Below are positions 5,552 to 61,280 of a stretch of 61,280 nt of DNA, one piece after another (within the stretch, counting starts at the first letter, position 1; each line of letters starts with the position of its first letter). Made by a program: the position numbers and the translations under genes. The notes under the pieces are model-generated. The model had not been told where the DNA came from, searched no databases, and was given only the letters and a program-made list of their open reading frames with translations. Origin of the DNA: an uncultured delta proteobacterium (GTDB lineage Bacteria; Desulfobacterota; Binatia; Bin18). The stretch spans positions 1 through 61,280 of the forward strand of contig CAVTCR010000029.1 in NCBI GenBank assembly GCA_963733195.1. The letters are read 5' to 3'.

Positions 5552-7021
5552 GTGAAAGTTGAGGCAGAGCTGACCGCCAAGGATTATGAAGCATTCTTCC
5601 TGATTGCGACCCGCAGAGCTTTTGCAGGAGGGGGCACTTATAGGGTGGGGGTGCGCTATTGGCTAATATTCACCCTCGGTTTCGTAGCCTGGATTGCCTT
5701 TGGCTTCCTTTTCCCATCTTTCTTCCACAGCTCTTCTTTGACTCAAGCGTTTGTGCTGCTTGCTGCGTATATTGCTTTCTCTATTTTTTGGCGTAGACGT
5801 TCCCGACGGGCAATGTCCCCAGAACCAGGAGGCGTATTACTCGGATCACACACCTTTTCACTCACCCCAGAGGGTTTTGAGGATCGCGGCACTTTTTCCT
5901 ACTCGCTTACCAAATGGCCAGCAGTGCGAGCGATTGAAGAAACACCCGAGCACCTTTTCGTGTTCATTGATAAGACTGCGGCCCACATCGTTCCTAAGCG
6001 ATGTTTTCCGCATCCAGAAGATTACGACGTATTTTTGCAAGGGTTACGAGAACACATTCCTTCCTCATCCGGTGTCACAGAAACGGCAACACTCTCCCGA
6101 ACCGGAACGTGGCGATTGATGCCCCTCGCTGCTCTCAGCTTGGCCGTCATCCTTCTCACCACTCTCCTTTTATCAAGAACACTCCCTTGGCAAGCATCGC
6201 GCAATCATGAAGATACCACCGAAGATATATCCGATAAGGATTGGGAAGAAGGAGAGGATTTGCTCTACTCCCAGATGGCACTCGTTGAAAAGCAAATCTC
6301 AGCTCTTTTGTCAGAACGTCCCGGAGTGATTGACTCCTATTTTGTCGGGTTCGGGAGTGACGCTGATCAAGACGTCTTCATGAAGGAAGTGCTCTACGCG
6401 CGGCAATTATTTGATCGACTGTATGATACGCGCGGGAGATCAATTGCACTGATTAATAACCCAAAGACCAAGAAAGAATTCCCACTTGCCTCGTTCACGA
6501 ATCTGCGGATCACGTTGCAACACCTTGGTCGGCGACTGAACTCGGAAGAAGACATCTTGTTTCTTTTTCTCACCAGCCACGGGTCACAAGACCATGTCCT
6601 TTCAGTCGATTACTGGCCATTGCCGTTAAAGGGAATTTCCTCAACTGCACTTGCCGGAATGCTTGAAGAGTCTGGTATCAAGTGGAGGGTCATCATCATC
6701 TCTGCTTGTTATTCAGGGGGGTTCATCGACGAGCTAAAGAACGACCATACGCTGATTATCACGTCGTCATCTGCAACTCGCCCCTCGTTTGGCTGCGGAA
6801 AAGCGGATGAGCTCACTTATTTTGGCAAAGCGTTCTTTAAGGACCAACTGAATAAAAGAATAGGCATCCTTCAAGCATTTTCGGGCGCAGTAACGCTTAT
6901 CCAACAGCGAGAAGCCGCACGAAAATTGGAGGCATCCGGTCCTCAGCTCTCCTCGTCTCCGGCAATCAACGACAAGTTAAGAAACCTCGAAGCACGACTA
7001 GCGGTCAGCAAACCTCACTGA
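5552..7021 (+). CDS. YcxB-like membrane domain fused to C13 family (legumain-like) cysteine peptidase
   Basis: N-terminal 2 TM segments plus W..ETPEHLFVF..AHIVPKR (YcxB-like). C-terminal QDVFMKEV, LTSHGS (catalytic His), ISACYSG (catalytic Cys), SFGC. Confidence 0.75.
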   Translation: MKVEAELTAKDYEAFFLIATRRAFAGGGTYRVGVRYWLIFTLGFVAWIAFGFLFPSFFHSSSLTQAFVLLAAYIAFSIFWRRRSRRAMSPEPGGVLLGSHTFSLTPEGFEDRGTFSYSLTKWPAVRAIEETPEHLFVFIDKTAAHIVPKRCFPHPEDYDVFLQGLREHIPSSSGVTETATLSRTGTWRLMPLAALSLAVILLTTLLLSRTLPWQASRNHEDTTEDISDKDWEEGEDLLYSQMALVEKQISALLSERPGVIDSYFVGFGSDADQDVFMKEVLYARQLFDRLYDTRGRSIALINNPKTKKEFPLASFTNLRITLQHLGRRLNSEEDILFLFLTSHGSQDHVLSVDYWPLPLKGISSTALAGMLEESGIKWRVIIISACYSGGFIDELKNDHTLIITSSSATRPSFGCGKADELTYFGKAFFKDQLNKRIGILQAFSGAVTLIQQREAARKLEASGPQLSSSPAINDKLRNLEARLAVSKPH

Positions 7022-7157
7022 CGAGCAACCGCGTTAGAGACTGGGCTCATAGCCATTCCGTTTGCTTTTGCTACTCACTGTGGTAGGAGCGGTGACGATG
7101 TTGCTCCCTGGTGGCCTCACCACTGTTCTCGGGCAGCATCGCGCTAAGGAGGGGAGC

Positions 7158-8502
7158 ATGAACGAAACGCCAACGCGTACTCGCTGGCTGATTGTCGCCG
7201 CCGTGTTTTGCATGGGCGTGTTGATGTTCATCGACCGCGTGAACATCTCTATCGCTGGTAAGTACATCATGCCCGAATACGGCCTTACCAATGTACAAAT
7301 GGGCTCGATCTTCAGTGCCTTTGTTTTAGGTTATGCGCTGCTACAAATTCCTGGTGGCTGGCTCGGTGACCGCTTCGGTCCACGTCCAGTGTTGGCTGGA
7401 GCAATTTGCTGGTGGTCGGCGTTTACTGCATTGACAGCAATCGCAGGTGATTTCTTCTTGGCCTCATTACTTGGCATCGTCGGCTCTTTCATGGTGGTGC
7501 GTGCGTTGATCGGCATCGGCGAAGCGGCTGGTCCGCCAAACTACAACCGCCTTGTCGCCAATTGGGTTGCTCCAGAAGAGCGTGGCCTCGCAATGGGCAT
7601 TGCGACCAGTGGTAGTGCGCTTGGTGCCGCGCTAACACCACCACTGATTGTGTGGATCATGGTCACTTGGGGTTGGCGCGCGGCGTTCTACATCGCTGGA
7701 GCCGCAGGCATTCTGCTGGCGCTGGCAGTGTATTGCGTTCATTACTGATCGACCAGCGGATCACTCGTGGGTCAATGCCGCCGAACTCCATCGTATTACT
7801 AAGAACGCACCAGTCGCACCAAGCAAAGCCCAACCGACTGGTCCAGTGCCGTGGCGGGCATTGCTGGGACGCGCAGATTTATGGTTGCTCACCGCTGCCT
7901 ACTTTGTACTCGGCTACATCATGTACATCTACTTCTCATGGTTCTACTTGTACCTCACTGACGTGCGCGGTTTTTCTGTTTTGAAAGGTGGCTGGTACAG
8001 CACTGCTCCGTTTCTCGCCGGAGCGATTACCGCGCCACTCGGTGGTTGGCTCTCTGATGCACTGGGCAAACGATGTGGCAAGCGCATCGGCCGCTGTGGC
8101 GTCGCCTGTGGGGCAATGATTCTCACTTCCTGTTTTATCTGGCTAGGAGCATCAGCCGCTGATCCATACATGGCTATTCTCTTCCTGTCCTTGGGCTCGG
8201 GCTCGCTCTTTCTGAGTACCGCAGCGTTCTGGGCAACAACCATGGATCTTGCCAGCAAATATGCCGGCACCGTCTCCGGCTTCATGAACATGGGCGGCAA
8301 TCTTGGGGGGACACTCTCCCCTACCCTGACGCCGTATATCGCTGAGCGCTACGGCTGGGAAACTGCACTCTATGTCGCTGCGGTGTTGGCCATCCTCGGC
8401 ATGTTTTGTTGGCTTGGCGTGCATCCTGAGCGAGCGATTGATCTGGAGGAGCGCGAGACCGCACATCCACTTGCATCTGCGGCGATTGCTGGGCAGAAGT
8501 AA
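7158..8502 (+). CDS. MFS transporter (anion:cation symporter-like), frameshifted near 7740
   Basis: IDRVNISIA, GGWLGDRFGPR, ERGLAMG; continues in ORF 7648..8502 (GTVSGFMNMGGNLGG). Confidence 0.85.
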
Positions 8503-8534
8503 CAAAAGACGGCATAAGCGCGACACGCCGGATG

Positions 8535-8731
8535 TGTCACCCTGACCCCTTCGACAAACTCAGGATAAACTCCGTGAAGGGTCTCTCAGAAAGATTCTTC
8601 GCGAAGCCTGTCCTGAGCGTACCCTGAGTCCTGAGCTTGTCGAAGGATCGAAGGGGGAGTCGAAGGGCTCAGAATGACATTTCTGTAATGTCGCATCGTA
8701 AAACGTACGAATAACCTACGTTCTGATTTAG
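8535..8731. repeat. Nested REP-like element (TGTCACCCTGA...TCAGAATGACA shell with CCTGAGCTTGTCGAAGG inserts) plus MITE-like right end
   Basis: Palindromic shell matches 30818-30877. The right flank CGTAAAACGTACGAAT..TCTGATTTAG matches the terminal repeats at 27215 and 36499. Confidence 0.65.
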
Positions 8732-8752
8732 AAATCACAAAAGGAGGTCATT

Positions 8753-9604
8753 ATGAAAGTTGGAGTTTTTCTTCTGCCATCACAAGAGTCAGCCGATCCT
8801 GCTGTTGTTGCCAAGCGCGCTGAAGAGCTAGGCTTTGCGTCGTTCTGGGTACCAGAACACGCAGTGTTGCCGGTACACTACAGCTCAAAATATCCAGGGA
8901 CTCCAGATGGCCGCATTCCACCGGCAGTTGGGGTTATTGCTGATCCGTTTGTTGCACTCGCCCGTGCCTCGGCCACTACGACCAAGATTCAGCTCGGCAC
9001 CGGAGTCTGTCTGGTCCCGGAGCGGAATCCATTAGTCATGGCAAAAGAGATCGCCACGCTCGATCACTTCTCTGGTGGACGCTTCCTGTTTGGCATCGGA
9101 GCCGGATGGTTGAAAGAAGAAAGTGAAATTATGGGCGCGGATTTCCAACACCGCTGGACCCAAACCCGTGACGCGATTTACGCGATGAAAGAACTGTGGA
9201 CCAAAGAGGAATCTGCGTATTACGGGTCGTACTACAATTTCCCTGCCGTGCGCTCGTTCCCCAAACCCGCGCAAAAGCCGCACCCACCAGTGCTGCTGGG
9301 TGGCTCATCAAAGTATGTCTACAAACGCGTCGCTGAGTGGGGCGATGGTTGGCTACCAACCGGCATGAAGATAGACAAGATTCAGGAAGGTTGGGCTACG
9401 ATCACTGACCTTGCGCAAAAGAAGGGGCGTGATCCTAAGTCACTGACACTGATTGTCTTCGGTGCTCCAGGACAGTTCCGCACGCGCGAAGACCTGAAGC
9501 CGCTCGAAAAAATCGGTGTTACTCATACCACCATTTGGCTCAAGAAGGCAGGAAAGACTGAAGCGGTCGCTGAAGTAGAGGAATTGGCAAAAGCGGTGCT
9601 GTAG
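8753..9604 (+). CDS. LLM class, probably F420-dependent, oxidoreductase
   Basis: AEELGFASFWVPEH, DPFVALA, TLDHFSGGRFLFGIGAGW, FPKPAQKPHPP; RBS AGGAGG. Confidence 0.88.
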   Translation: MKVGVFLLPSQESADPAVVAKRAEELGFASFWVPEHAVLPVHYSSKYPGTPDGRIPPAVGVIADPFVALARASATTTKIQLGTGVCLVPERNPLVMAKEIATLDHFSGGRFLFGIGAGWLKEESEIMGADFQHRWTQTRDAIYAMKELWTKEESAYYGSYYNFPAVRSFPKPAQKPHPPVLLGGSSKYVYKRVAEWGDGWLPTGMKIDKIQEGWATITDLAQKKGRDPKSLTLIVFGAPGQFRTREDLKPLEKIGVTHTTIWLKKAGKTEAVAEVEELAKAVL

Positions 9605-9636
9605 AACGTGGGCTGTGATGCGAGTTCCATGATGCG

Positions 9637-9710
9637 TGAACATAAAACGTAAAGCGACAAACGTAAGAGGGTGGTGGGGTAGTTATTCTTTACGTTTTAC
9701 GTTTTATTCA
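9637..9710. repeat. Heptamer-type tandem repeats (AAACGTA) in inverted arrangement
   Basis: ATAAAACGTAAAGCGACAAACGTAAGA followed by TCTTTACGTTTTACGTTTTAT. Confidence 0.55.
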
Positions 9711-9730
9711 GCAACGAAAGGAGAAAATTC

Positions 9731-10558
9731 ATGGCAGGACTCGTACAAGGAAAAGTTGCACTCGTCACCGGTGGAGGTTCAGGCATTGGACGCGCGACCT
9801 CGCTTATATTTGCCCGAGAAGGTGCAAAGGTCGTAGTTGCTGATATCGTCGTCGCTGGTGGTGAGGAAACCGTACAAATGGTGAAAGCTGCCGGTGGTAA
9901 TGCGATTTTCGTCAAAGCCGATATGAGCAAAGCCGCCGACATCGAAGCGATGGTGAAGAAAACCGTGGATACGTTCGGTCGCCTCGATTGTGCCCACAAC
10001 AACGCCGGCATCGAGGGAACAACGAAAAAGACCTTCGATTACTCAGAAGAAGAATGGGACCGTGTTATCAACATCAACCTCAAAGGTGTGTGGCTGTGCA
10101 TGAAGTATCAGATCCCGCAGATGTTGAAACAAGGCGGTGGCGCGATCGTCAACACAGCTTCTGATGCAGGTTTGCTCGGCGTGCCACAGATGCCCGCCTA
10201 TGTCGCCAGTAAGCACGGCGTTGTCGGACTTACCAAAACTGCTGCTCTCGAATATGCCAAGCAGGGCATTCGTGTAAATGCTGTATGTCCGGGAGTAATC
10301 AAAACCCCGATGGTTGATCGCATTACTGGTTTGCGTCCAGGTCGAGCAGAACGTATGACTGCCGCAGAGCCGATTGGACGAATGGGCAAACCAGAAGAAA
10401 TCGGCGAAGCTGTCGTATGGCTGTGTTCAGACGCCTCGTCGTTTGTCACTGGGTTACCAATGCCGGTTGATGGTGGGATCGCGGCGCAGTATTGGGGAAA
10501 AATGATGAAGGATGAATGCCAAGCTAATATAATTCCCCAACCGCGGAGCGGTGAATAA
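9731..10558 (+). CDS. Short-chain dehydrogenase/reductase (classical SDR)
   Basis: TGGGSGIG, NNAG, YVASK, VNAVCPG. The true end may be near 10492 (after DGGIAAQ) if a stop was miscalled. Confidence 0.9.
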   Translation: MAGLVQGKVALVTGGGSGIGRATSLIFAREGAKVVVADIVVAGGEETVQMVKAAGGNAIFVKADMSKAADIEAMVKKTVDTFGRLDCAHNNAGIEGTTKKTFDYSEEEWDRVININLKGVWLCMKYQIPQMLKQGGGAIVNTASDAGLLGVPQMPAYVASKHGVVGLTKTAALEYAKQGIRVNAVCPGVIKTPMVDRITGLRPGRAERMTAAEPIGRMGKPEEIGEAVVWLCSDASSFVTGLPMPVDGGIAAQYWGKMMKDECQANIIPQPRSGE

Positions 10559-13886: not shown

Positions 13887-13927
13887 CAGGCGGATATGTT
13901 AACTCACGCCAGATACTCATGGCAGCC

Positions 13928-14032
13928 TGTCATTCCGGGCAAGGCCGCAGGCCGCGACCCGGAATCCAGGAAAAGAAGACTGGATGCCAGCTTTCGCTGG
14001 CATGACGAAAAGTAGGGCGGGCTGTGCCCGCC
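13928..14032. repeat. GTCATTCC-type REP-like element followed by a GTAG-type REP hairpin
   Basis: TGTCATTCCGGGC..CCCGGAATCCAG..CTGGAT..GGCATGAC, then GTAGGGCGGGCTGTGCCCGCC at 14012-14032, between convergent genes. Confidence 0.65.
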
Positions 14033-15649: not shown

Positions 15650-15674
15650 TGGCGTGTCAGTCAACTGCTTGCAG

Positions 15675-15897
15675 TGTCATTGCGAGGAGCCCATAGCGCT
15701 GGCGCTAAGCATTCAGGCAAAAACGGGACACGTGCTCGTCCCGGCTCTCCTGGGGCCGGAATGAGACGGAGTCTCCTGCCACTGCCGTTCAGGCAGAGCC
15801 TGGGAGCGGAGACTGAAGATTTGTTTCTGAGCAGCGTAGCGAAGCAATCTTTGTCTGAAAAGAGATTGCTTCGTCGCCTTGGCTCCTCGCAATGACA
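15675..15897. repeat. TGTCATTGCGAGGAGC...GCTCCTCGCAATGACA REP-like element with nested inserts
   Basis: Perfect 16-bp terminal inverted repeat; internal GAAGCAATCT/AGATTGCTTC pair. Confidence 0.75.
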
Positions 15898-15929
15898 CTA
15901 TCGGTTTGCTGGCACCTTCTGCACCGTAT

Positions 15930-16949
15930 TCACCCCCGGAAACTCGGCATGATTTCTTTGGCAAACAGCTCTAGCGATCGGGTTGTCTTCTGCGGATCAA
16001 GACCAGGCAACTGCATACCGATCACAAAGTGTGTACAGCTATGCCGCTTGAAGAAGGGTTCCATTTTGCGGGCAACTTGATCCGGGGTGCCAATCATTGC
16101 CGCGCGACCAAACCCTGAGTTGCGCATCTCACTGGACTCTTGAATTGCCAAATGTCTTTGTCGCCCGGCGCGTCATTCGCCTCGGACAGGATCTTTCCGT
16201 AGTATTCCATCGAGTTAAACAGATGATCCTGCACATCCGCCCATGCCTGATCCTCACTATTGGCAAGATAGACCAACCCGACTTGTCCGATGAAAAACTG
16301 CGCGGGATCGTACCCATGAGCCTTGAGAGTCTCACGATAGAGCGGCGCGGGATCAGGGCCGAGGGTTGCCATCAGATGCGCGCCCATACGCGCCGACCCG
16401 TTGGATCGCCTTCTCGGCTCGTGCACCCATCCAGATCGGGATATGTGGCTGCTGGACCGGACGCGGAGAAAGCGTCATGTCCTTCACCTGCGTAAACTTT
16501 CCATTGAAGGTCACATTTTCTTCAGTCCACAGACGGCGGACTAACTCCACGCCTTCAGCAAGGCGAGCCGAGCGCTCCTTGCGATTCATACAATGGGCAG
16601 CAAACTCTTCGGCGGCGTACCCTTGCCCAGCACCAAGATCGAAGCGTCCATTCGAGATGATGTCGATACACGTCGCATCTTCGGCCACGCGCACCGGATG
16701 ACGAAACGGCATCAACAACACATACGTGCCAATGCGAATACGACTGGTGCGTGCCGCGATGGCTGCTGCAGTTGTCAACGGTGACGGGTTGTAGCCATCA
16801 TCAGCAAAATGATGCTCAGCCAGCCAGACATTGTCATAGCCAAGCTCTTCGGCCCGGACGATTTGATCGAGGATTTCTCGATAGAACTGTGGCCACGGTC
16901 GCCGCCATTGGCGCGGATTGCGAAAGTCATGAATGATGCCGAATTTCAT
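15930..16949 (-). CDS. LLM class flavin-dependent oxidoreductase, frameshifted
   Basis: AEELGYDNVWLAEHHF, SNGRFDLGAG, PRPVQQPHIPIW; C-terminal IGTPDQV..SLELFAKEIMP. Confidence 0.85.
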
Positions 16950-17021
16950 AGTGTTATCCTTTCATGAAGAGCTTCGAAAGCAAGGTAAAAACAATGACAC
17001 AATGGTCAAAGATGAATTCCT

Positions 17022-17489
17022 CTAAAAGCGCTGCGCCTCTTGTAGACCGTGTGGCGAAGCGTCAGAAGGGAACTTCTTTACCAAGTGGCTGATCCAATTG
17101 ACTGTGCGGCGTTTCTCTTCTCCTACTTGCCACCAGTCTAGTTGTCCCTCGCTGACGCGCACGATCTTACCCATACGAGCAGCCTCCGTTTTGAACTGTG
17201 GCAGATGAAAGAGCTGACGCAGGAGAAGTGGGAGTCGGTGTTGTTCCTGGGGGAACAAGGAGACAGAGATAAGACATAGCGGCGATCTCGATAGTTTTTC
17301 TTGTAAAAGCCGACATCAAGCGTCACGAACGTCGGTTGCTTTTGTGAATGTAAGATTTGGAGAATCCGTTCATCCTTGAGAGTTGTCTGTGGGATGAGGT
17401 CTTCGATTTTCTGAGCGGTTGTCTCCAGGTGCGAAGGGGAGCGAGCACCTCCGTACGACTGAGGTGCTCATCGATAAGGATCTGGCTCA
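17022..17489 (-). CDS. PIN-like (DUF5615/PIN_10-type) putative toxin, frameshifted
   Basis: Reconstructed MSQILIDEHL..LKDERILQIL..FVTLDVGFY acidic PIN pattern; ATGA overlap with the upstream DUF433 gene. Confidence 0.6.
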
Positions 17490-17717
17490 TGCTGCTTTGC
17501 GGTATCTCTCTAGTAATGCCGCAGTAGCAAGTTGTAAGGCCTCTTGCACGGCTTCCCAGAGAGATGAAGCGATCGGTCAGTACGCAATCTACTAAGCGCC
17601 CATCGGCCATATAGCTATAGACTGTCTCAACGAGAATGCGTGTTCTTTTCAACGTAAGCTCACTATGGCAGATCGCCGGATCTCGAACCGGATATTGCCG
17701 ATCTCGATAGGATTCAT
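17486..17717 (-). CDS. DUF433 domain putative antitoxin, frameshifted
   Basis: Reconstructed MNPIEIG..VRDPAICHSELTLKRTRILVETVYSYMADG..EAVQEALQLA..YRKAA-stop. Confidence 0.65.
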
Positions 17718-17737
17718 GGAAATTCCTGATCCGTACA

Positions 17738-20700
17738 TTAGCCTGAACGGATATACAGGGCAGATTCTTGTTTTTCGTCTGAGGAAAGTTCGGCCAACAG
17801 CATCTTCGCCTCTTGCAAATCCTTGGTATCAAAACCTTCCGTGAACCAGTTGTAGACTGCGGCTAACAGGCCGTGAGCTTCTTTTCTTCTTACCCTGCTG
17901 TTGCCACAGCCGTGCAAGGCTTGTTGCAGCGCGCAATTCCCAGGATTTTGCCTGTTGCTTCTGGGCAATATCAATGGCTCTCGAGAAACATTCTCCAGCT
18001 TCTTCTTCGACTTTGGATTTTGGACCTTGGACTTTGGACTGTAGCGTTAGCTCGCCTTTTAATCGATACAGCTCCGCCTCGTAGAAACGCTCCTCAGTTT
18101 TGTTCACCAGAGTCCAGTGCTTCAGTCAGATGCGTAAGTCCTTCTTCTACCTGTCCTACTTTCCCATACACCTCGGCCAGCAGAGCAAGACAACACGGCC
18201 GTCCTAACTCTGTCCCAGTGGCCCGCAAGGTGGTCAGCCCCTGACGTATCTGGGCAATCCCTTCCTCTACCTGTCCCTGCTCGGCCAGCGCCAAGCCACG
18301 CAGGATAGTCCCTACGCCAACAAGAAACGAAAACCCTTGCTCGCTACGAGAGCGTCATCAGTGCCTCTGCCCGCTCTTGGGCTAGTTGTCCCTCCCGGCG
18401 GAGCTGATGGAGCATAGCAGCAAAGGTCAAGGCAAAAGCCAGACTAAAGGGATGAGACAGATCTTGCGCAAGGGTGAGGCCTCCTGGCTCCTCTTCAGGG
18501 CTGGTCTGGATAGCCCAGAAACCACAGGTTCACGGCCGCATAAGATAGGCAGCCTACTCCAGGGTCATACCCATAGAGAGAAGGACGGGAACGGTGCTTC
18601 TGAGGGTTATAGAGGGCAATTCCTTGCTCCAAGTGCTCACGGGCAGAGACAAACTCTCCAAGCATGAGAACAAGGTCTCCCTAGCGCATAGTGGGCCTCC
18701 ACGAGAAGCGCCGGATCTTGCTGGCGCTGGGCCAAGCTAAGCAGCTGCTCCGCCAACTCACGCGCTGTCTGTAACTCTGCTCGTACCTGATAAAACACCG
18801 ACAGCCCACGCAGCACCGGGAAGAGTTGAGGGGTTTCTCCAATCTGCCGGCACAGCTCTAGCGCCCGGCCGTAGGCTTATTCCCACTTCCGGAGCCGCAT
18901 AGCCTTTGGTGACCATCAGCGGCGGACCCAAGGCGATTTGCAGCGTAAGTTCTTGCTGGGCACGTTCAGGAGTGTCCGGCAGAGTTTTGAGCAACTCCAG
19001 CCCCTTGGTGAGGTGAGCAATCGCTTCCACGTTGGCCGAGCGCTGGATGGCTCTCTGCCCTGCCTTCTGCCAGTAGGGAATGGCTTGCGCGATGAGACCT
19101 GCCTCGGTGTAGTGATGCGCCAGCAGCTCTGGCTGGGTCTCTTTCGTCTCTGGGAAACCGTTCTTCCAATACCTGAGCTATCTGTTGGTGATACTTCTGG
19201 CGGGTGCTCTTGAGCAGCGACTGATACGCCGTGTCTTGAATCAGGGCATGTTTGAAGACGTAGTGCGCCTGCGGCAGCAATCCGCGCTGATAGAGCAGTT
19301 CGCTATCGACCAACTTTCGTAAGGCTTGTTGCAAGCTGATTCATCTAAAGATGAAACAGCCTGGAGGAGTTCTAAGAAAACTCCCGACCCAGCGTCGCAC
19401 CGAGTTGCGCGATCTCTTTGGCTTCCCCCAGCCGATCCAGCCGGGCCATCAGGGCATCCTGCAACGTCGCAGGAATTCCCACTGGTAGGGAGCGACTGGC
19501 CGACTGTCCTAGACTCAATAGACTCTATGGACTCAATAGACTCTAAGACTGTTCTTCGTCAACTCTTCCACAAACAACGGGTACCCCATCGGTCTTGCTG
19601 ACAATTTGCTCTACAACCTCTAGGCAAAGTTTTGCTCGCCTGTGACTTTCTCACCATTTCTTCTACGTGAGTCTTGCCGAGACGACCGAGAGTCAACTGA
19701 CTCAGATAGGAATGCGTACCCCACGAGGGCGTGAACTCTGGCCGACACGTCAGCACGGTCAGTAATCGGATCGTGGGCACTTGGGCCAATAAGAGGGTGA
19801 GCAGTTCCAGGGTGGACGGATCGGCCCAATGCAGATCCTCCCAGGCGTAATAAGTCGCTCGTTGCGCTTGCCTCTCACACAACCAGGCGACGAGTACTTC
19901 ATAGGTCTTCTCCCTTTGCTTTTGCGGAGTGAGAGCGGTAGAGGAAACTCATCGGATGGGGAAGCACAGCAGGGAGGCCAGAAGGGGACATTCCTCCTCT
20001 AGGGACGGCCGCCACGCGCAAGAACGCACTCTCTAGATTCCGTAGTTTCTCTTCTGGGGCTCGTCTCGTGTCGAAACCCAGCGCACGCTGCAGATGTGCA
20101 ATCACCGGATAGAGCGCACTGTTTTGATGATACGGCGAACAGCGCAATTCCAGCCAGGCGTGAGCCTTCGTGCTTGAGCGTTTCTTTCAGCGCCTCCAAG
20201 GCGAGATTTGCCGATCCCGGCTTCGCCCGGAGCAATACTACCTGTCCTTCCCCTTCTTTCACTCTCTCCCAACGCTTCTCTAACAGTTCGATTTCTTCCT
20301 CGCGTCCGACCAGCGGTGTGAGACCGGTCGTGACGGCAAGCTCAAAGCGACTGTGGATCTGCTCTCTCCTTGGACTTCGTACACTTCCACGGGGGTCGAG
20401 AGCCCTTTGAGTGTCTGCTGCCCGAGCGGACGGCAAGTAATGTAATCACGTACCAAGCGGTGGGTGGCCGCACTGATAACGACGGTGTTGGGTTCTGCCA
20501 GGGCTTGCACGCGAGCCGCAAGATTTGGGGTCTCACCGACAATAGCCAGGGCTTCTCGCGTCTCTCCTGCTCCCATCTCTCCCGCGACGACTAACCCAGT
20601 GTGAATGCCGATGCGAACCTGAATTTCTTTCACCTCTTTGGGGAGGGTCGGGAGGACCAGCTTCTGTATCGCCGCAACAATCTCCAAGCCCGTTCGCACC

Positions 20701-21212
20701 GCACGCTGAGCATCGTCCTCATGCGCTACGGGATAGCCAAAGTACACCAGCAGTCCATCACCCAGATACTTGGCCAGATATCCGTCAAACTGTTTAATCA
20801 CCCTGGCACACGCTTCGTTATATGCTTGAATGACATCGCGATAATCTTCCGGGTCGAGTTGTTCCGAGAGCGCCGTCGAACCGACCAGGTCACAGAACAT
20901 CACGGTCAACTGCCGCCGTTCGGCGATAGTGTCTAGGGTCTGGTGTCTAGGGTCTAGCGTCTGAGGACTAGGAGATAGAGACGGGGAACTGGCAACTGAC
21001 AACTGAGAACTGACAACTTCCGTGCCGCCGACCCAAACCAGTACTTTCCCATCCTCATCAAGTGCCACCCGCTGGGCATCGATCAGTTCGGCTTTGAGGT
21101 CAGCAAGATCATCGTCATCAAGCTCAAACTCGCGCTTGAGGGCACGGTACGAGACCCGTCCCTGACGTTGCAGCCAGGCTTTCACTTGCGCGGTTAGCTC
21201 AGAGAATTTCAT
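17738..21212 (-). CDS. Class III adenylate/guanylate cyclase + AAA (STAND) ATPase + TPR protein, copy 1, many frameshifts
   Basis: [96 protein letters not shown]. Confidence 0.85.
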
Positions 21213-21312
21213 GGTTATGGCTCGCCCAATCAGACCGTTGTGATTGAACCACACTTGAGGGATTTTGCAATGGAAAAAGTGTATGGTCCCGCAACAGCGC
21301 CGGGAGGAAGAA

Positions 21313-22470
21313 ATGCGACATGAATTTGCGTTGGGCCAACGATCTCGTCTTACTGCTATTTGCGGTCTTTGGCCTCTGTTACTAATGACAATCACAACAA
21401 CGATAGCAGACACCTCTCCGCCATCTCCAACACGACAAGAAGTCGCCAATGGCCTCACTGCTGTCACAGGAGTGAAAGTCGGACACCACACACTAAGTGA
21501 GCGACCTACCGGATGCACGGTCGTGCTGGTCGAGGCCGGAGCAGTTGCAGGCGTTGATATCCGCGGTTCTGCTCCTGGCACGCGGGAAACCGATCTGCTC
21601 AACCCTCTCAATATGGTCGAGCAAGTGCATGCTATCGTACTTTCCGGTGGCAGTGCGTTTGGCCTTGATGCGGCAAGCGGGGTCGTTCGTTACCTTGAAG
21701 AACGGGGAATCGGTTTCGATGTGCGAGTGGCAAAAGTCCCTATCGTTCCGGCAGCAATTCTTTTCGATCTCGCCATTGGTGATGCCAAAATCCGTCCGAC
21801 TGCTGAGTGTGGCTATCAAGCCGCACAATAGCTGAATACCAAGCTCCGTGCAGGAAGGAAACGTCGGTGCCGGTGCCGGTGCAACAGTAGGGAAGCTCGC
21901 GGGACGTAACCGTGCGATGAAAGCAGGAATTGGCTACTGCAGCAGTGACGTTACCAAGTGGGCTCACCGTTGCCGCATTAGTTGCGGTCAATGCGGTTGG
22001 TGATGTGATCGATCCTGCCACTGGCCAGGTTGTTGCTGGCGCGCGCAGGACGATGAGAAAATCGTTCGCTGACGTCGAGGACCTTATTGAAAGCTGGCAC
22101 ACTCCAGAGCCGACGGGTGGGTCAGAACACGACGATTGGCGTTGTCGCCACTAATGCGCGCCTCACCAAAGTTCAGGCAACTAAAGTCGCCCAGATGGCC
22201 CATGATGGATTTGCTCGGGCAATCTCACCAGTGCATACGCCGCTTGATGGCGACACGATCTTTGCTCTTGCTACAGGAACCCACACACAGGCTGTCGATC
22301 TGCTCACTGTCGGTGCGCTTGCGGCTGAAGTAATGGCCGAAGCTATCGTGCGAGCGGCTCGTGCAGCAACTGGGATTCCGGGGTATCCTGCGGCGCGGGA
22401 TTTGATAAATACAGGTAAAGGTGACCAATGGATAAAAAGTCAGCTCCGAAAACGAAGAAGAAAGCAATAG
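21313..22470 (+). CDS. P1 family peptidase (S58, DmpA-like), frameshifted
   Basis: GVKVGHHT, RGSAPGTRETDLL, LSGGSAFGL, QNTTIG autocleavage motif, HTPLDGDTIF. Exact start and stop are uncertain. Confidence 0.85.
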
Positions 22471-22713
22471 CGCGACTACGCCCGTGCCCAGAATGTGGAG
22501 CAACAATGAATTCAGGCCGAATCACGCTTCATTTCGAACAGATGGATATTATGCAGATGTCGAGAATGTTCCTGCAATGATTTGTAACCACTGTGGAACA
22601 CGCAGTGTTCCAGGTCCATCGCCGTAAAGATCAGTGAGACCGTGAATCAACTCTTTGCGCAAGCAAAGGACCTCGACGCAACCGGGATTTCTTTTCATAA
22701 GTTGGCGAGTTGA
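22428..22713 (+). CDS. YgiT-type zinc finger protein (not in ORF track; frameshifted)
   Basis: Manual translation: MDKKSAPK..CPECGATM..VENVPAMICNHCG..ISFHKLAS-stop. Confidence 0.6.
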
Positions 22714-22817
22714 CACTTGCTATGATGCAATGACCCAATGAAACAATGGCTCAATTCTTCTAAAAGTGGCTTCGCCCCTTGCACGTCTTTGGTATCAAAG
22801 TCTGTTGCGTAACCCAG

Positions 22818-23171
22818 TTACAGAGAGGTAATCCATCCCGCCAGTCTCTGTCGTATCCGCTGCAGGCGGTCCGAGCTGATCTCACCAATCGTTCCTACCA
22901 ACATACTTGCTGGGACAACCGCAAGACGCGCAATACGAATCACGCTGGCCACTTTCAATCCCGAACTTTGGAAATCAGTCTGAGTCTGGTCGATCACTTC
23001 ATCGAATCCCGCAACCGCTTGTTGCAGTTGAGTCGAAAGCATACTCACCAACCAGTCATCATACGGGCCAGGGAGCGGTGCGACGAGTAGCACTGGCCTT
23101 GGCTTCCCCTCGCCAAGCGCAACAGTTGGAAACTGAACGATAGCAAGCTGTCCGGCTTTCCTCACTGCCAC
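22818..23171 (-). CDS. PemK/MazF family toxin
   Basis: VQFP..GKPRPVLLV, GLKVASVIRIARL, IGEIS; overlaps the antitoxin stop. Confidence 0.85.
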   Translation of the reverse strand: MAVRKAGQLAIVQFPTVALGEGKPRPVLLVAPLPGPYDDWLVSMLSTQLQQAVAGFDEVIDQTQTDFQSSGLKVASVIRIARLAVVPASMLVGTIGEISSDRLQRIRQRLAGWITSL

Positions 23172-23380
23172 TTCTCCTTGAAATCCGCTTCGCCATATTC
23201 AGGCCAGATGTCATTCTCCATACCCGACAACGCAGCCTGCAACGACGACATCGCCGAATCGTGATCTTCCTCTCTTAACCTCCGAGCGAGCTGCTCAACA
23301 AAAGCGAGGACGGTCTGCTGTGCCGGCTCTGGTAAGTGCTGTACTTGTTCGTGAATGCGGTCCACAGTATTCATAGCCAT
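23162..23380 (-). CDS. DUF2281-like antitoxin
   Basis: 72 aa, IHEQVQHLPEPAQQTVLAFVEQL with an acidic C-terminus; directly upstream of and overlapping the toxin. Confidence 0.7.
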   Translation of the reverse strand: MAMNTVDRIHEQVQHLPEPAQQTVLAFVEQLARRLREEDHDSAMSSLQAALSGMENDIWPEYGEADFKEKWQ

Positions 23381-23468
23381 AATCCAATCATTTTATGACC
23401 CAATTTCATTGAGTTATCGAGCCATTGAGTGATTGAGAACAATAGCCTTTTAATCTTGCCTTTATCCT

Positions 23469-26400
23469 TTATCCGTTTCCCCATTTTGCCATTTCCCCCA
23501 AGTCTTCAAGCAGCGCCTTCGCCTCTTGCAAATCCTTGGTATCAAACCCTTCGGTGAACCAGGTGTAGATCTCGGACAACAGCTTGTGCGCTTCGGCTTG
23601 CTTGCCTTGCTCTTGCCAGAGCTGTGCGAGGCTTGTTGACGCACGGAGTTCCCAGGATTTCGCTTGTTGCTTCTGAGCAAGATCAATAGCTCTCAAGAAA
23701 CATTCTCCAGCTTCTTCTTCGACTTTGGATTTTGGACCTTGGACTTTGGACTGTAGCGTTAGCTCGCCTTTTAATCGATACAGTTCCGCCTCCCGTATAC
23801 GTTCCCCTGTTTTCTTTACATGATCGAGCGCTTCGGTCACAAGACGGTTAGTCCTTCTTGTATCTGCCCTACTTTCTCCATACGCCTGGGCCAACAAACC
23901 AAGAAAAATTTGGCTCTTGATAACTCAGTTCCTATGGCCGCTTGAAAGTGCCCAGACTCTGGCGTATCTGTGGTAATTCCTTCTTCTGCTTGTCCTTGTT
24001 CGGCCAGTGTCCGACCTGCGAATGATATGTTGCCCACCGCTCGACCAGTATGAAAAGCCCTCTGTTCACGTCGAGAGAGTAAATGGCTGTCTCTGCTCGT
24101 TCTTGGGTCAGTCGTGACTTCTCAGGCGAGCACCAGGTAGAGATAACTCGGCAGAGAAGGAGAGAGCAAGAGCCAAGGCTAACGAGGATGAGCTAACTCT
24201 TGAGCAAGAGCTACAGCACTTGCCTGACTACTCTTCAAGGCTTGGTCGGGATAGCCTAAGCATCCATAGAGACCGATGGCCGTAGGAGGATCGGCAGCGC
24301 TACCCTAGGGTCTATGCTCACCACGAGAGGAATGTAGGAATGGTGACTGTCTGGGGGTCGTAAAGGGCAATCTCCCTGCTTCGAGATGCTCTCGGGCTGA
24401 GAAGTAAGCTCTCCGAGGTTGATACATGGCCTGGCCTAGTGCTCATGTAGGCTTCGATGAGGAAAGCTGCGGATTTTGCTGACGCTGGAGCCAACGTAAG
24501 AAGCTGTTCGGCTAACTCACGCTCTGTTCTGATGTTCTGCGCGTGAAAGATAAAATAGCCTCAGTCCCCGTAATACCGGGAAGAGTTGAGGAGTCTCCCC
24601 TAGTCTGCCGGCACAGCTCTCGGGCTCGAGCGTAGAACTGCCGGCTGCTTCCAGAGCTGAAAGCCTTTAGTGACCTGCGAGTGGTGGACCCAAAGCGATT
24701 TGTAGAGTGAGTTCTTGCTGGGCACGTTCAGGCGCTGTCAGGCAGAGTCTTGAGCAACTCCAACCCCTTAGTGAAGTGGGCTAATCGCTTCCACATTGGC
24801 CGAGCGTTGGGTTGCTCGCTGCCCAGCGTTTTGCCAATAGGGAACGGCTTGGGTGATGAGCCAGGCCTCGGTGTAGTGCTGCGCCAGCAGTTCTGGTTGG
24901 GTCTCTTTTGTGCCAGGAAATCGTTCTTCCAATATCTGCGCTATCTGTTGGTGATACTTCTGTCGAGTGCTTTTGAGTAGCGACTGATATGCCGTGTCTT
25001 GAATCAGGGCATGTTTGAAGACGTACTGCGCCTGCGGGAGCAAGCCACGCTGATAGAGCAGCTCACTATCGACTAACTTTCCTAACGCTCCCTGCAAGGC
25101 TGATTCGTCCGCGGATGCAGACAGCATGAAGGAGTTCGTAGGAAAACTCCCGGCCTATCGTTGCACCTGAGTTGTGCGATCTCTTTCGCTTCCCCAAGTC
25201 GATCAAGCCGGGCCATCAGGGCATCGTGCAAGGTTACAGGAATAGTCTGAAGCATCTTCTTCTTCTCTGACTCATTAGACCCCAGAGACTCTCCAGACTC
25301 CAAGACTGCTTTTGTCACCTCCTCCACAAATAGCGGTACGCCATCGGTCTTGCTGATAATTTGCTCTACAACTTCCGCAGGTAGGGTTTTACCGCCTGTG
25401 ACTTTCCTCACCATTTCTTCTACGTGAGTCTTGCCAAGACGACCGAGAGTCAACTGACTCAGATAGGAATGCGTACTCCATGAGGGCGTGAACTCTGGCC
25501 GACACGTCAGCACGGTCAGTAATCGGATCGTGGGCACTTGGGCCAATAAGAGGGTGAGCAGTTCCAGGGTGGACGGATCGGCCCAATGCAGATCCTCCCA
25601 GGCATAGCAGGTCGCTTGTTGCGCTGCCTCTTCCACACAACCAGGCGACGAGTACTTCATAGGTCTTCTCTTTTTGCTTCTGCGGACTGAAAGACAATGA
25701 GGGATACCCATCAGGATGGGGCAGTGACAGCAGAGCGGCCAGTAGCGGCATTGCCTCCGGTTGTAGGGACGGACGGCCGTTCGCCCCTACGAGCGCGGTC
25801 TCTAACTTCCGTAGCTTCTCTTGCGGGCTCTCCTCGCTCTCGAACCCCAGCACCCGCTGCAGGTGTGCAATCACCGGATAGAGCGCACTGTTTTGGTGAT
25901 ACGGCGAACAGCGCAACTCGATGTGAAGCGCCCCATCTTGTATGAACGTGAGCTTTGAGTGTCTCGACCAGCCGCGATTTGCCAATCCCAGCCTCGCCCT
26001 GGAGCACCACCACCTGCCCTTTTCCTTCTTTCACCCGCTCCCAGCGCTTCTCTAACAGTCCGACTTCTTCCTCTCTTCCCACCAGCGGACTGAGGCCAGT
26101 CAGCGACAGCAAGTTCAAAGCGACTCTGAATTCGGCTCTCGCCCTGGACTTCGTACACTGCCACAGGCGTGGACAATCCCTTCACTGCATGAGAACCAGC
26201 GATACATGAAGAGTGAAAAATCCGTCCACTAATCGGTGCGTCGCAGCACTGATGACCACGGTATTGGGCTCAGCCAGCCCTTGCAAACGGGCGGCAAGGT
26301 TCGGGGTCTCGCCGACAATGGCCAGTGGCTCGCGTGTACTCTCCCGCCCCCATCTCTCCAGCGACCACCAGCCCAGTATGAATGCCGAGGCGGACTTGCA

Positions 26401-27082
26401 AGGGCGCAGCATGCTGCGCCCCTACCCCTTTTTCGTTTTTCTGTAACCTGTTCCCGGTAACCTGTTCCCTTATTGCCCTAACTATTTCTAATCCCGCACG
26501 CACGCGCACGCTGGGCGTCATCCTCATGTGCCACGGGATAACCAAAGTACACCAGCAACCCATCACCCATGTACTTGGCCAGATGCCCGTCAAATCGTTG
26601 AATCGCCGCGGCACAGACTTCGTTATAGGCCTGGATGACCTCGCGATAATCTTCCGGGTCAAGTTGTTCCGAAAGTGCCGTCGAACCGACTAAGTCGCAG
26701 AACATCACGGTCAATTGGCGACGTTCGACGATAGTGTCTAGGGTACTGCGGTGCTAGCGTCTAGCGTCTGAGGTGCTGGGAACGAGCAACTGAGAGCTGA
26801 GAACTGGCAACTTCCTTTTCGCTCTTTCCCCCTTTCGCCTTTTCGCCTTCGCTTTTTGACAACTATCTGTACAACTGTTTCCCCGTTTATCCGTCCCGAC
26901 CCAAACCAGCACCTTTCCATCTTCGTCGACTGCCACTCGCTGGGCATCGATCAACTCGACTTTGAGGTCAGCAAGGTCGTCATCATCAAGCTCAAACTCG
27001 CGCTTGGAGGGCACGGGTGCGCGAACCGTCCCTGGCGTTGCAGCCAGGCTTTCACTTGCGCGGTGAGCTCAGAGAACTTCAT
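23469..27082 (-). CDS. Class III adenylate/guanylate cyclase + AAA (STAND) ATPase + TPR protein, copy 2, heavily frameshifted
   Basis: Same motifs as copy 1, including Walker [23 protein letters not shown] and [18 protein letters not shown]; long near-identical DNA stretches shared with copy 1. Confidence 0.82.
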
Positions 27083-27214
27083 GGTTATGGCTCGCCCCAA
27101 TCAGACCGTTGTGATTGAACCACACCGGCGGGATTTTGCAATGGAAAAAGTGTATGGTCTCGCAACAGCACCGGGAGGAAGAAATGCGACATGAATTTGT
27201 GTTAAGCCAACGAT

Positions 27215-27347
27215 CTAAATTGAAGCCCCAGAACATTCGTACACTTTACGCGGCAACATTTCGGAGCTGTCATTGTGAGCGCAGCGAAGAATGACATGAA
27301 TGCGTAATCGCGTCGTAAAGTACACAGGATGTTATGTATTCGACTTA
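27215..27347. mobile_element. MITE-like element with imperfect terminal inverted repeats around a TGTCATT..AATGACA core
   Basis: Left end CTAAATTGAAGCCCCAGAACATTCGTACACTTTACG; right end CGTAAAGTACACAGGATGTTATGTATTCGACTTAA. Confidence 0.5.
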
Positions 27348-28145
27348 ACGTCCATGAAACTTCGGCGGACGCTTTTCCAAAAAAGCGCGGCGGCCTTCGT
27401 TGAAATCCTCGGTTTGTTGCGCGTAGTAGAGCGCCTGTCCTTGATGTTCGTACGCCGCTTCAGGGGAAATTTCCTCCCAACCATGAATAATCGCAGCTTT
27501 GGTGTAACCGTAGGTTAGTGTCGGACCTTCCGCAAACTCACGAGCCCATTCCATCGTTGCTTCTTCAAGTTGTGCGAGAGGCACTACTCGATTCACCAAC
27601 CCCCAACGTTCAGCTTCTTGTGCAGAGAGCTGTTTAGCCAACAGTGCCCATTCCATCGCCTTGCCGATACCAACAAATTGTTGAAGAAGGCTTGTCCCGG
27701 TAGCAATCCCACGCTTTACAAACGGAATGCAGAGCGTGGCTGAGTCAGCCATAACCCGTAGGTCACAGCCAAGCGCAAGATTAAACCCGGCTCCGTGGGC
27801 GTGACCGTTGATCATACCAATCACGGGTTTTGACAGCGAACGCATCTTCGCCACGACTAACGGCCAGCGACCTTCGCCTTTTACATACTGTTTCACCGGG
27901 TCCTTGTAGCGACGATCCAGTTCGCCAGGTTCAGTCATCCCCTTAAGATCATCGCCAGCGCAGAATGCCCGTCCTGCGCCAGTAAGAACAACTACCCGGA
28001 CGTTCTCGTCTCGATCACACTCCTCCAACGCGTGCAACAGCTCCACACCGATGCGCACGTTAATTGCGTTCAGACGCTCAGGACGATTGAGCGTGAGGCG
28101 GCAAATGCCTGTGTCTTGTTTAACCAGTAGATAACGGAAATCCAT
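27345..28145 (-). CDS. Enoyl-CoA hydratase/isomerase family protein
   Basis: LNRPERLNA, AFCAGDDL, GHAHGAGFNLALGCDLR, EGRRAFLEKRPPKF. Confidence 0.92.
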   Translation of the reverse strand: MDFRYLLVKQDTGICRLTLNRPERLNAINVRIGVELLHALEECDRDENVRVVVLTGAGRAFCAGDDLKGMTEPGELDRRYKDPVKQYVKGEGRWPLVVAKMRSLSKPVIGMINGHAHGAGFNLALGCDLRVMADSATLCIPFVKRGIATGTSLLQQFVGIGKAMEWALLAKQLSAQEAERWGLVNRVVPLAQLEEATMEWAREFAEGPTLTYGYTKAAIIHGWEEISPEAAYEHQGQALYYAQQTEDFNEGRRAFLEKRPPKFHGR

Positions 28146-34015: not shown

Positions 34016-34165
34016 GGATTGCGAATTGTAGATTAACGATTGCGGAATAGAACGGTCCCAGTTTGAGATTGCAGATTGGTGATTGTGGATTGTCGATCCT
34101 TTATCCTTTATCCATTTCCCCTATTTTCCCATTTCCCCGTTTCACCCTATCTTCCTTTCGCCTTG
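34016..34165. repeat. Heptamer repeat arrays (GATTGCG-type and TTCCCC-type)
   Basis: GGATTGCGAATTGTAGATT..GATTGCAGATTGGTGATTGTGGATTG; ATTTCCCCTATTTTCCCCATTTCCCCG. Confidence 0.55.
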
Positions 34166-41625: not shown

Positions 41626-41744
41626 CGTCATTCCCGCACAGCTTGTCCCAAGTCCTACTGGGACCTGTCCCAAGTCCTACTGGGAGCGGGAATCCAGTTT
41701 CTGCTCCTGGATTCCGGGTCTCGCGTTACTCGCCCGGAATGACG
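41626..41744. repeat. CGTCATTCCCGC..GCGGGAATCCAG..GGAATGACG REP-like element containing a duplicated 20-bp hairpin
   Basis: TGTCCCAAGTCCTACTGGGA at 41644-41663 and 41666-41685. Confidence 0.7.
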
Positions 41745-41902
41745 AGCTGCCACGCGTATCTGGATTGAGAATTTTGTCTCTAAGCGGCAACGTCCTTTTC
41801 GTGTGCATAGCACACGCAACGGCTACGGCTGCTCAGATGCTCAGACTCCTAGACTCTCAGACTCTAGACTCTCTTTCCCCCATCTCGCTATAGTACCGTC
41901 CT

Positions 41903-44638: not shown

Positions 44639-45259
44639 TTATTTGTTCACAGCCTCGGAGGTTTCTTCCGGGGCTTTTTTTTGTTCATGCGCAGGCAATT
44701 GAGAAGTCAGTACCTGCACCGCCCGTACGCCTGTCCCATACCGATAGACAAGTTCCCCACCAAGGTATCCTTGGACCAGCAGGCCAATCAGCCCGACACC
44801 AGAGAGTAGGACAAAAAAAAGTGGAAGTCGTTCGTGAATCCCAGAGCGGAAGATTGCGAGGACGAGAAAAAATCCTGCCAACGCGTAGCCCCCATATTCG
44901 TGGTAGAAGAGAATATTCTGGCTATGAGTATCAAATGCACTCGGTGGCCGCGGCAGTTCATGCTCGATCCAACCGCTCAGGGCAGCAAGGCCCAGTGCAA
45001 CGACACCGGCAAAGAAGCAGATTTTACCAGCTTGTTGCCACGCCAGCTGTTCACGCAAGCTTCCCAACCAGTCGAAGACACAACCAAAGCAGGTGAGTGC
45101 AATCGCGAAGTGAACGGCAATGGGATGAAAAATGAAGAGAGCCCCTTCTTCGAGGGGCGGTACTGGTACGTCATCCTGGGCTAACGCTGCTCCACGAAAA
45201 AGACAAAAGGCAAAAGGTAAAAGGTAAAAAACTGGGGAAGTCCAAGGCCTAAAGTCCAA
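44639..45259 (-). CDS. DUF2231-like membrane protein
   Basis: FHPIAVHFAIAL, HE, QGYLGGELVYRYGTGV. The start is uncertain because the N-terminus overlaps heptamer repeats. Confidence 0.7.
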   Translation of the reverse strand: MDFRPWTSPVFYLLPFAFCLFRGAALAQDDVPVPPLEEGALFIFHPIAVHFAIALTCFGCVFDWLGSLREQLAWQQAGKICFFAGVVALGLAALSGWIEHELPRPPSAFDTHSQNILFYHEYGGYALAGFFLVLAIFRSGIHERLPLFFVLLSGVGLIGLLVQGYLGGELVYRYGTGVRAVQVLTSQLPAHEQKKAPEETSEAVNK

Positions 45260-45332
45260 GGTCCAAGGTCCAAAATCATCACATGAACCTTCTTCCTGAT
45301 TTAGACTCTGAACTCTGAACTCTGAACTCTAG
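45197..45332. repeat. Three different heptamer arrays (AAAAGG-, TCCAAGG-, ACTCTGA-type)
   Basis: CAAAAGGCAAAAGGTAAAAGG; TCCAAGGTCCAAGGTCCAA; ACTCTGAACTCTGAACTCTGAACTCT. Confidence 0.65.
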
Positions 45333-60583: not shown

Positions 60584-61280
60584 ATGATGACCACACGAAC
60601 CTACGACGTACTGCATCACGAAGGAGCGCCCCAATCAGAAGGTGGACCCAAGGAGTACCGGTTGAAGATGCGGCGAAACAGCAACTGAGCAACACGGCTA
60701 AGATGCCGTTTATCTATAAGTGGCTCGCTGTCATGCCGGACGTGCACGTCGGAAAAGGCGCAACCATCGGTAGCGTTGTTCCGACCAAGCGGGCGATTAT
60801 TCCGGCGGCTGTGGAAGTCGACATCGGATGCGGAATCACGGCGGTCAAGACCACGCTCACGGCAAGTGATTTGCCCGATAGGCTCTCTGGGTTGCGGAAC
60901 GCGATCGAACGAGCGGTTCCACACGGAAAGACATTCGGGGCGCCAGATAAGGGGCGTGGACAGCCACCTGACAATGTCGATCAGGCCTGGGCAATGTTCA
61001 AGCAGCGCTTTGCCAAAATCGTTGATAAGTATCCAAGATTACAGAAGACCAATAATTACGTACATCTGGGCACCTTGGGAACAGGCAATCATTTCATTGA
61101 AGTTTGCCTGGATGAAGCCAATGCGGTCTGGTTCATGTTGCATAGCGGATAGCGTGGTGTCGGTGGCGCGATCGGGGTAGCTTGTTCATTGAGTTGGCGA
61201 AGAAACGGGATATGCGCACCTGGTTGATCAATTTGCCAGATATGGACCTTGCATATCTGCCGGAAGGGACGAGCATTTCA
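60584..61280 (+). CDS. rtcB: RNA ligase RtcB, frameshifted, truncated by window end
   Basis: AVMPDVHVGKGATIGSV, VDIGCG, LGTLGTGNHFIE, MLHSG. Confidence 0.93.

Follow-up and report, generated by a model that had tools for sequence, protein, structure and literature searches.

The subject of this analysis is a contig of 61,280 nucleotides from an uncultured delta proteobacterium of the Binatia (CAVTCR010000029.1, assembly GCA_963733195.1), the whole of which is called the window here. On its minus strand lie two paralogous genes for proteins that combine a guanylate cyclase domain, a STAND-type AAA domain and TPR repeats (cyclase-STAND-TPR genes), each followed by a toxin-antitoxin (TA) gene pair and then by an orphan cyclase 3' end, hereafter a stub, the second of which is probable. 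Read along this strand, the order is an enoyl-CoA hydratase gene, a 5' stub of a peptidase S58 gene (opposite strand), paralogue 1, the DUF2281/PemK pair (pair 1) and stub 1, and then a full peptidase S58 gene (opposite strand), paralogue 2, the DUF433/PIN-like pair (pair 2), stub 2 and a luciferase-like monooxygenase gene (Table 1; L numbers denote loci of the comparative set described below). An earlier note on this DNA had reported the bracket of cyclase end, TA pair and orphan end twice on the minus strand. This was confirmed, and the bracket recurs in five other genomes.

Stub 1 starts at the PemK stop codon, as the earlier note had it, and its score on the terminus HMM compares with 8.7 bits for the best reversed-sequence control. 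Stub 2 was not detected by the terminus HMM. Its median alignment score against 112 termini was 27, which was above 250 of 250 random windows but no higher than the best of 92 opposite-strand 2-kb scans and is therefore borderline alone. The orthologue of the luciferase-like monooxygenase in L058 likewise follows a clear stub, and for this reason stub 2 was accepted as a probable orphan cyclase end. The opposite-strand-calibrated scans (2 kb) gave no additional weak stubs above the null apart from stub 2.

Table 1. Features of the two cyclase-TA-stub units and their flanks in the window
Feature	Position	Strand	Basis and remarks
Luciferase-like monooxygenase	15930..16949	-	Downstream flank; Pfam; 74% nt to L058
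CATTG-type heptamer tract	16988..17005	-	After stub 2; aligns with the tract behind stub 1
Stub 2, strongly decayed orphan cyclase 3' end (probable)	17011..17083 (core 17013-17054)	-	Alignment scores
PIN-like toxin, pair 2 (putative)	17094..17490	-	Frameshifted; tblastn of L044 homologue 6.7e-11
DUF433 antitoxin, pair 2 (putative)	17487..17717	-	Frameshifted; Pfam E 6e-5, 23.2 bits vs cut-off 23.6; tblastn of L044 homologue 1e-10
Cyclase-AAA(STAND)-TPR paralogue 2	17738..21212	-	Frameshifted; Guanylate_cyc E 1.6e-26
Peptidase S58 gene	21265..22470	+	Frameshifted, separates the two units; Pfam E 2.5e-19 and 2e-17
CATTG-type heptamer tract	22722..22750	-	After stub 1; similar to the tails of intact ends (e.g. 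L042, L036, L075)
Stub 1, orphan cyclase 3' end	22749..22825	-	Begins in PemK stop codon; nhmmer 36.5 bits; junction alignment
PemK/MazF toxin, pair 1	22818..23171	-	Pfam E 2e-9
DUF2281-like antitoxin, pair 1	23162..23380	-	Pfam E 8e-4, 20.3 bits, below 26.5 cut-off
Cyclase-AAA(STAND)-TPR paralogue 1	23469..27082	-	Frameshifted in assembly; Guanylate_cyc, AAA_16, TPR matches on pieces
Peptidase S58 5' stub	27121..27216	+	Upstream of paralogue 1; 92% nt identity to 21250-21345

Pair 1 consists of two overlapping genes of 72 and 117 aa, the toxin belonging to a known family (PemK), and judged by these gene features it is a predicted type II TA pair. For pair 2, the DUF433 match lies just under the cut-off, and the toxin, which has no Pfam match of its own, matches the partner of the L044 DUF433 gene and is classed as PIN-like through this homologue alone; the Atlas look-alikes of the homologue carry DUF5615/PIN-like families (DUF5615/PIN_10) in 13-41% of members. 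Both genes are frameshifted in the assembly, and the toxin gene lacks the stop present in the homologue, its reading frame running on into stub 2. A further small frameshifted gene (22428-22720, plus strand), convergent on stub 1, has two CxxC motifs and resembles YgiT/MqsA antitoxins by eye; its pieces gave no Pfam or NCBIfam match.

The two cyclase genes are nearly full-length against the 1134-position family HMM (positions 13-1132 in paralogue 1 and 1-1133 in paralogue 2), with conserved terminal blocks at about 23497-23591 and 17784-17878, and they share an identical 18-residue C-terminal sequence. Alignment of 17798-21345 with 23511-27216 gave 77% nucleotide identity with patches of 93-95%, including the upstream region, and the two were reciprocal best matches in all but one regional comparison (up to 67 relatives). 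This similarity, together with the repeated peptidase start, indicates that the two units are a tandem duplication. Many assembly indels are found in the window, and because housekeeping genes are frameshifted too, the integrity of its genes cannot be judged and part of the degeneracy may be sequencing error. As to the family, a relative from L021 matches TIGR03903 (TOMM kinase/cyclase fusion) over residues 276-1266 (E 4e-189) and has its cyclase-AAA-TPR body, but it scores 631, below the cut-off of 706, and the kinase part is absent; this comparison concerns the L021 relative.

The CCATTG..GTCATTG repeat that the earlier note had seen after both stubs is present in the sense that the two tracts align. 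However, intact ends of the LEELSH type (18 of 112 termini) have it as their native tail, and it is missing behind several stubs; it was rejected as a cassette signature. The CATTG doublet occurs at four places in the window, three of them at stubs, and the tract is one among many heptamer tracts of these genomes. Heptamer tandem tracts were also observed at 18009-18040, 23721-23752, 20927-21018, 26754-26857, 45198-45330 and 34096-34143; the units are alike inside cyclase linkers and between genes, and they may seed the internal deletions found in relatives.

For comparison, GTDB contigs were scanned with a degenerate terminus pattern, which gave at least 94 loci; all locus counts refer to the matches listed. 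Titles were available for 76 loci from 17 genomes, mostly titled Binatia or Deltaproteobacteria, and the set is biased toward one 14-residue end type through the search pattern. L054 was dropped as a duplicate of L053, and L077-L094, which have short flanks, were excluded from counts requiring 700 nt downstream. TA-type genes, defined by a Pfam match in the next two ORFs, were found behind 35 of the 92 termini with 700 nt downstream and behind 2 of 75 control gene ends, taken from a pool of 124 (38% vs 3%; Fisher 1e-8); 2 of the 35 rest on hand-picked ORFs (L026 and window pair 2). Several DUFs and nucleotidyltransferase/HEPN pairs were included, which we take to be TA-type. With strict families only (described as toxin, antitoxin or PIN), the counts were 17 of 92 and 1 of 75. 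Among the 177 downstream ORF references, 6 were unscanned, 1 was replaced by a hand-picked ORF and 5 window ORFs were scanned separately; among the 123 control references, 116 + 6 were scanned and 1 was unscanned.

Records titled Enterobacteriaceae, Klebsiella pneumoniae or Acidobacteriaceae (e.g. L005, L012, L039 and L064) bear Binatia-type genes and are probably mislabelled. In L044, L050, L051, L067 and L069, two to four full cyclase genes stand head to tail, roughly 50 nt apart. The terminus was found in 40 plasmid records, and none of the six proteobacterial plasmid loci examined had an orphan terminus, which is too few to conclude.

A stub was present within 2 kb downstream of 8 of the 35 TA-followed termini and of none of the 57 others (p 3e-4; 8e-4 without window stub 2), which bears out the enrichment of orphan termini around TA cargo implied by the earlier note. 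Six of the eight brackets lie outside the window, in five other genomes. Their cargo is Phd/ParE in L001, PIN in L037 and L065, UPF0175/DUF3368 in L053 and DUF4258/MqsA-like in L071; the L058 bracket is more complex, being a series made up of the 5' fragment of a cyclase, then a fragment of HigB and finally a stub. Compound arrays also occur, namely end-TA-stub-antitoxin in L053 and stub-TA-stub in L037. No stub was found behind the remaining 27 TA-followed termini, a few of which are on contigs that end too early to tell.

The earlier note had proposed that the terminus works as a recombination or attachment site that captures and swaps TA cassettes. The stub starts range over residues 1011-1117 of the 1134-position family profile, i.e. 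about 100 codons, and the repeats at the borders are 55-260 nt long and 67-92% identical in the block. The stubs did not prove to be copies of the last codons of their own gene: in 7 of 7 loci, 3-13 of 39 nt distinguish the intact end from its stub, and the own end is mostly near the median rank of other termini. A target-site duplication was rejected, since in most loci the stubs are no nearer to their own gene's end than other termini are. When eight termini were folded on both strands, no attC-like hairpin with a common stem was found (-1.4 to -10.9 kcal/mol). No structured RNA was matched in Rfam at E<=1 in 16500-28000, and counts of sigma-70 promoters or terminators in the window termini were at the shuffle level. 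In agreement with the earlier note, no integrase family was found by Pfam among the window ORFs scanned, nor was a transposase or reverse transcriptase family. A site-specific attL/attR element in the gene 3' end was rejected, there being no identical core at the borders and no fixed crossover position. An attachment site in the site-specific sense is largely refuted by the spread of the junctions; the property of the terminus that remains is its homology.

The terminal block shows 89% pairwise nucleotide identity, compared with 60% just upstream and 69% just downstream. This value is partly inflated by the search pattern, and it is 90% in the 15 nt outside the pattern. In nine same-cargo pairs, a weak linkage to the cargo was seen for the 21 coding nt beyond the block, the last 7 codons (5/400 shuffles), but not for the block itself (379/400) or the upstream part (78/400), which places crossovers in or near the block.

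The cargo differs at orthologous sites. L014 and L072 have both flanks in common (71-73% nt) and different cargo, and the 5' parts of their cyclases rank 2-18 among relatives whereas the 3' parts rank 22-63 (one pair). Downstream of both L018 and L042 stands the same hydantoinase-like gene (named by eye), and the two have a terminal lesion in common but differ in their TA pairs. In addition, window pair 1 recurs in L042 (83% nt identity) and the L065 TA pair in L072, in both cases behind a terminus, with no trailing stub and a different downstream gene. These results indicate that the cargo turns over at such sites, mostly without a scar. The swapping of TA cassettes put forward in the earlier note is therefore upheld, although a need for the bracket is not supported, since most TA-followed termini have no stub. 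In L014 and L072 (cyclase at about 6800-10050 in the latter), the cyclase and its cargo are situated between a BrxD-like ATPase, which scores below the NCBIfam cut-off, and a shared downstream gene, a BREX-like operon setting.

Our preferred reading, held with moderate confidence, is that cargo is exchanged through host homologous recombination, free of any dedicated recombinase, with the conserved terminal block as a homology island, mostly by replacement and sometimes by displacement. The cyclase-STAND-TPR family has many copies per genome, no DNA of the gene is more conserved than its last 25 or so codons, and small TA operons lie directly behind many of its ends. Host homologous recombination within or beside the terminal block, with no dedicated recombinase, would trade a unit of gene end, leader and TA pair among paralogues and relatives. 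Usually the cargo would be replaced without a scar, while roughly one event in five would leave another gene end behind the TA pair. This second end may arise when a small circle of stub and TA pair, closed at the TA stop, is integrated by a single crossover, or when the far end of a homology-anchored piece is joined illegitimately. Loss would then be opposed by TA addiction. Of all this, the TA enrichment, the recurrence of the bracket, the cargo differences between orthologous sites, the imprecise junctions and the homology island are observed, whereas the route and direction of recombination, any circle and the part of addiction are inferred. In the window, the promoter-cyclase unit was duplicated in tandem, and its two copies carry different cargo. 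A circle predicts that the stub resembles the terminus of the locus from which the cargo came, i.e. a circular permutation. In both of the two loci with an outside copy of the cargo, 39 nt of the stub at the junction resemble the terminus of that copy, a resemblance equalled by 3 of 108 other termini in each locus. This is a weak hint of circular permutation.

Several observations weigh against this reading. Homologous exchange by itself gives no reason for junctions sitting on stop codons. The cargo linkage (p ~0.015) comes from one of three windows tested, a W..E block is not common to most same-cargo pairs, and the circular-permutation signal consists of two cases in one of four windows tested, while window stub 2 also best matches L042. 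Carriage of the cargo together with the cyclase body was rejected, as same-cargo pairs are not each other's closest cyclases. Among the matches listed, there is neither a pair of empty and filled alleles from close strains nor a single junction at two sites. Moreover, 7 of the 15 stubs have no preceding TA gene (L026, the first of L037, L062, L064, L069, L086 and L088); upstream ORF fragments of L086 and L088 are TA-like by eye and have no Pfam match. The stubs of L069 and L037 lie immediately behind housekeeping genes, with no cyclase upstream within the short flank available, and are unexplained by left-anchored capture.

A stronger form of the exchange, which we regard as doubtful, would be a recombinase-free, self-renewing network of TA cassettes in the Binatia. 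In it, the TA stop would be the exact point at which stub, leader and TA pair close into a circle (possibly on an RNA template), and this circle would integrate at any of many paralogous cyclase ends and could be released again from the resulting bracket, with addiction opposing loss. If this were true, the coding end of a signalling gene would take the role that attC sites have in integrons.

The alternative that survives best, possible yet in our judgement less probable than homologous exchange, is that each stub is what remained of a tandem paralogue after deletion of its body, the second cyclase having been lost from cyclase-TA-cyclase arrays. The upstream gene would then bound the deletion on the left, the tip would be kept for the ribosome site or promoter that it supplies to the following gene, and TA turnover would be a separate hotspot process. 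This refutation, raised in the earlier note, has ample substrates, as cyclase-TA-cyclase arrays and cyclases with internal deletions are common. About 9 of the 35 TA-followed termini have a further cyclase, or the 5' part of one, behind them, the fragments of L058 lie in series, the stub of L065 contains the ribosome site and extends over the start of the following gene, and solo stubs (L062, L064, L026, L069) require no TA pair. The mini-cyclases of L005, L013, L030 and L058 (first element), which unite an N-terminal piece with the C-terminus, mostly without the cyclase and ATPase domains, show that such fused genes exist. In L018 (1470) and L042 (3691), both on the minus strand, the cyclases break off in a C-terminal linker tract and resume at the W codon where several stubs begin.

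On the other hand, the breakpoints are clustered at both sides, which fits deletion poorly. Among truncated elements keeping the end, 16 of 20 start within the last 125 residues (binomial 2e-10 vs uniform breakpoints). Of 10 junctions in strict alignments, 5 (window stub 1, L058, L065, L069 and L071) are at most 3 nt away from the place where the upstream gene stops and all are at most 50 nt away, although a single deletion could begin anywhere in 3.3 kb. In L065, homology to L072 stops inside the stop codon. Long stubs that abut a stop, such as that of L069 (about 360 nt), are a poor fit to stepwise erosion, no sigma-70-like promoter was found in the window termini, and both testable stubs resemble the terminus of their cargo's copy elsewhere. 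The L069 junction is at an aldehyde dehydrogenase-like gene (named by eye), so the stop-codon rule extends beyond TA genes. A divergent upstream neighbour goes with some 70-170 nt that have been spared. The side of the junction is explained by selection on the upstream gene, but its precision not clearly so.

That precision would be accounted for if junctions were RNA-templated, i.e. if a reverse transcriptase copied the transcript of a cyclase end and switched to an mRNA cut at its stop, the cDNA then recombining into the chromosome. Ribosome A-site cleavage occurs at stop codons, and group II intron enzymes switch templates. Such a route, which we consider improbable, would account for the 0-3 nt precision, including the housekeeping gene of L069 and the lost stop of the HigB fragment in L058, and for short 5'-truncated stubs with a constant 3' end. 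However, the window ORFs scanned include no reverse transcriptase, 5 of the 10 junctions lie 5-50 nt off the stop in strict alignments, and short spacers with selection on the upstream gene can imitate the pattern.

Still less credible is a true attachment site used by a recombinase encoded elsewhere, in the manner of integron or 3'-end-targeting-island capture of TA genes. One and the same W codon is the starting point, to within about a codon, of five of the 15 stubs and two intragenic deletions, the uniformity of synonymous sites in Y-x-W-F-T-E is above average (+0.12 to +0.26), and in integron cassettes stop codons overlap the junction. These points are opposed by the range of stub starts, the differences between each intact end and its stub, the lack of a shared hairpin in the folded termini and of integrase, transposase and reverse transcriptase families among the scanned window ORFs, and the swaps that happen without a trailing stub. 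Assembly chimeras at a multi-copy repeat are very unlikely: all loci are metagenome assemblies and the window is rich in indels, but the geometry recurs in five other genomes from separate projects, the stubs have substitutions absent from intact ends, and junction overlaps of a few bases are too short for contig mis-joining.

Integron cassettes and 3'-end islands carry small, promoter-poor cargo that is often TA, leave a displaced 3' fragment and have the junction at the cargo stop. Small TA cargo, an extra 3' fragment and a junction at the cargo stop codon are also found here; the difference is that there is no integrase among the scanned window ORFs and no attC-like fold, fixed crossover or identical core repeat. 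Unconventional circularizable structures use long near-identical direct repeats and no recombinase, whereas the border repeats here are shorter and divergent, with the lengths and identities given above. Closer parallels are found in displacement systems. In Jackson et al. 2009 (PMC2935791; see also PMC8125069), Rhs C-terminal displacement is described as the joining of a new 3' piece with linked genes at a conserved stretch while the old 3' piece stays downstream, and a circle formed and integrated by homologous recombination, with no dedicated recombinase, is proposed. Here, too, a conserved anchor lies upstream of exchangeable cargo and an orphan 3' piece downstream. In contrast, the displaced Rhs tip is a variable toxin domain, whereas the orphan here corresponds to the part of a signalling gene that is conserved most, what varies is the cargo, a type II TA operon of its own, and the arrays are short. 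Sequential displacement of effector-immunity modules of type VI secretion (T6SS) in Vibrio works alike (PMC5361080, which also draws a comparison with integrons; 10.1101/2021.05.28.446156). In that case the piece that stays behind is of use to an orphan immunity gene, and one to three loci are concerned, whereas many paralogous loci are involved here and the gene behind the stub is usually metabolic. By analogy, the bracket would work like Rhs and T6SS displacement without being a member of either, since the orphan piece is the conserved end of a cyclase-AAA-TPR gene and no variable toxin tip of an Rhs, VgrG or effector gene, and since the cargo is a TA operon apart from it. In the Microcystis orthocaspase MaOC1, a TA pair lies directly behind a large gene and is flanked by direct repeats, but according to PMC7935541 these are identical, 152 bp long and intergenic, whereas here they are coding ends of a paralogue family. 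No account of an association between cyclase-STAND-TPR genes and TA pairs was found in searches of the open-access literature. The bracket is thus recurrent and apparently undescribed, and it seems to be a variant of a known homology-driven process and no new site-specific system.

Apart from these units, REP-like palindromic intergenic repeats are present in the window (15673-15899, and 13903-13992 / 41685-41769), and comparable palindromes lie upstream of the L062 stub, beside an IS1595 transposase. An RNA repair locus was also observed, with genes for the regulator RtcR (57150-58219, minus strand) and the RNA ligase RtcB (60703-61152, plus strand), frameshifted. Rtc RNA repair loci are frequently induced by toxin RNases.

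The means by which chromosomal TA pairs move in the absence of a mobile element are an open question. The use of the conserved last codons of a paralogue family as a genome-wide docking sequence would be a concrete and countable route for TA genes, and it would extend C-terminal displacement from secreted toxins to intracellular TA operons. To specialists, the precision with which junctions fall on stop codons may be the most surprising feature. Finally, the coupling of cyclase-STAND-TPR genes to TA pairs suggests a stress or defence role for a so far unexplained gene expansion in an uncultured phylum.

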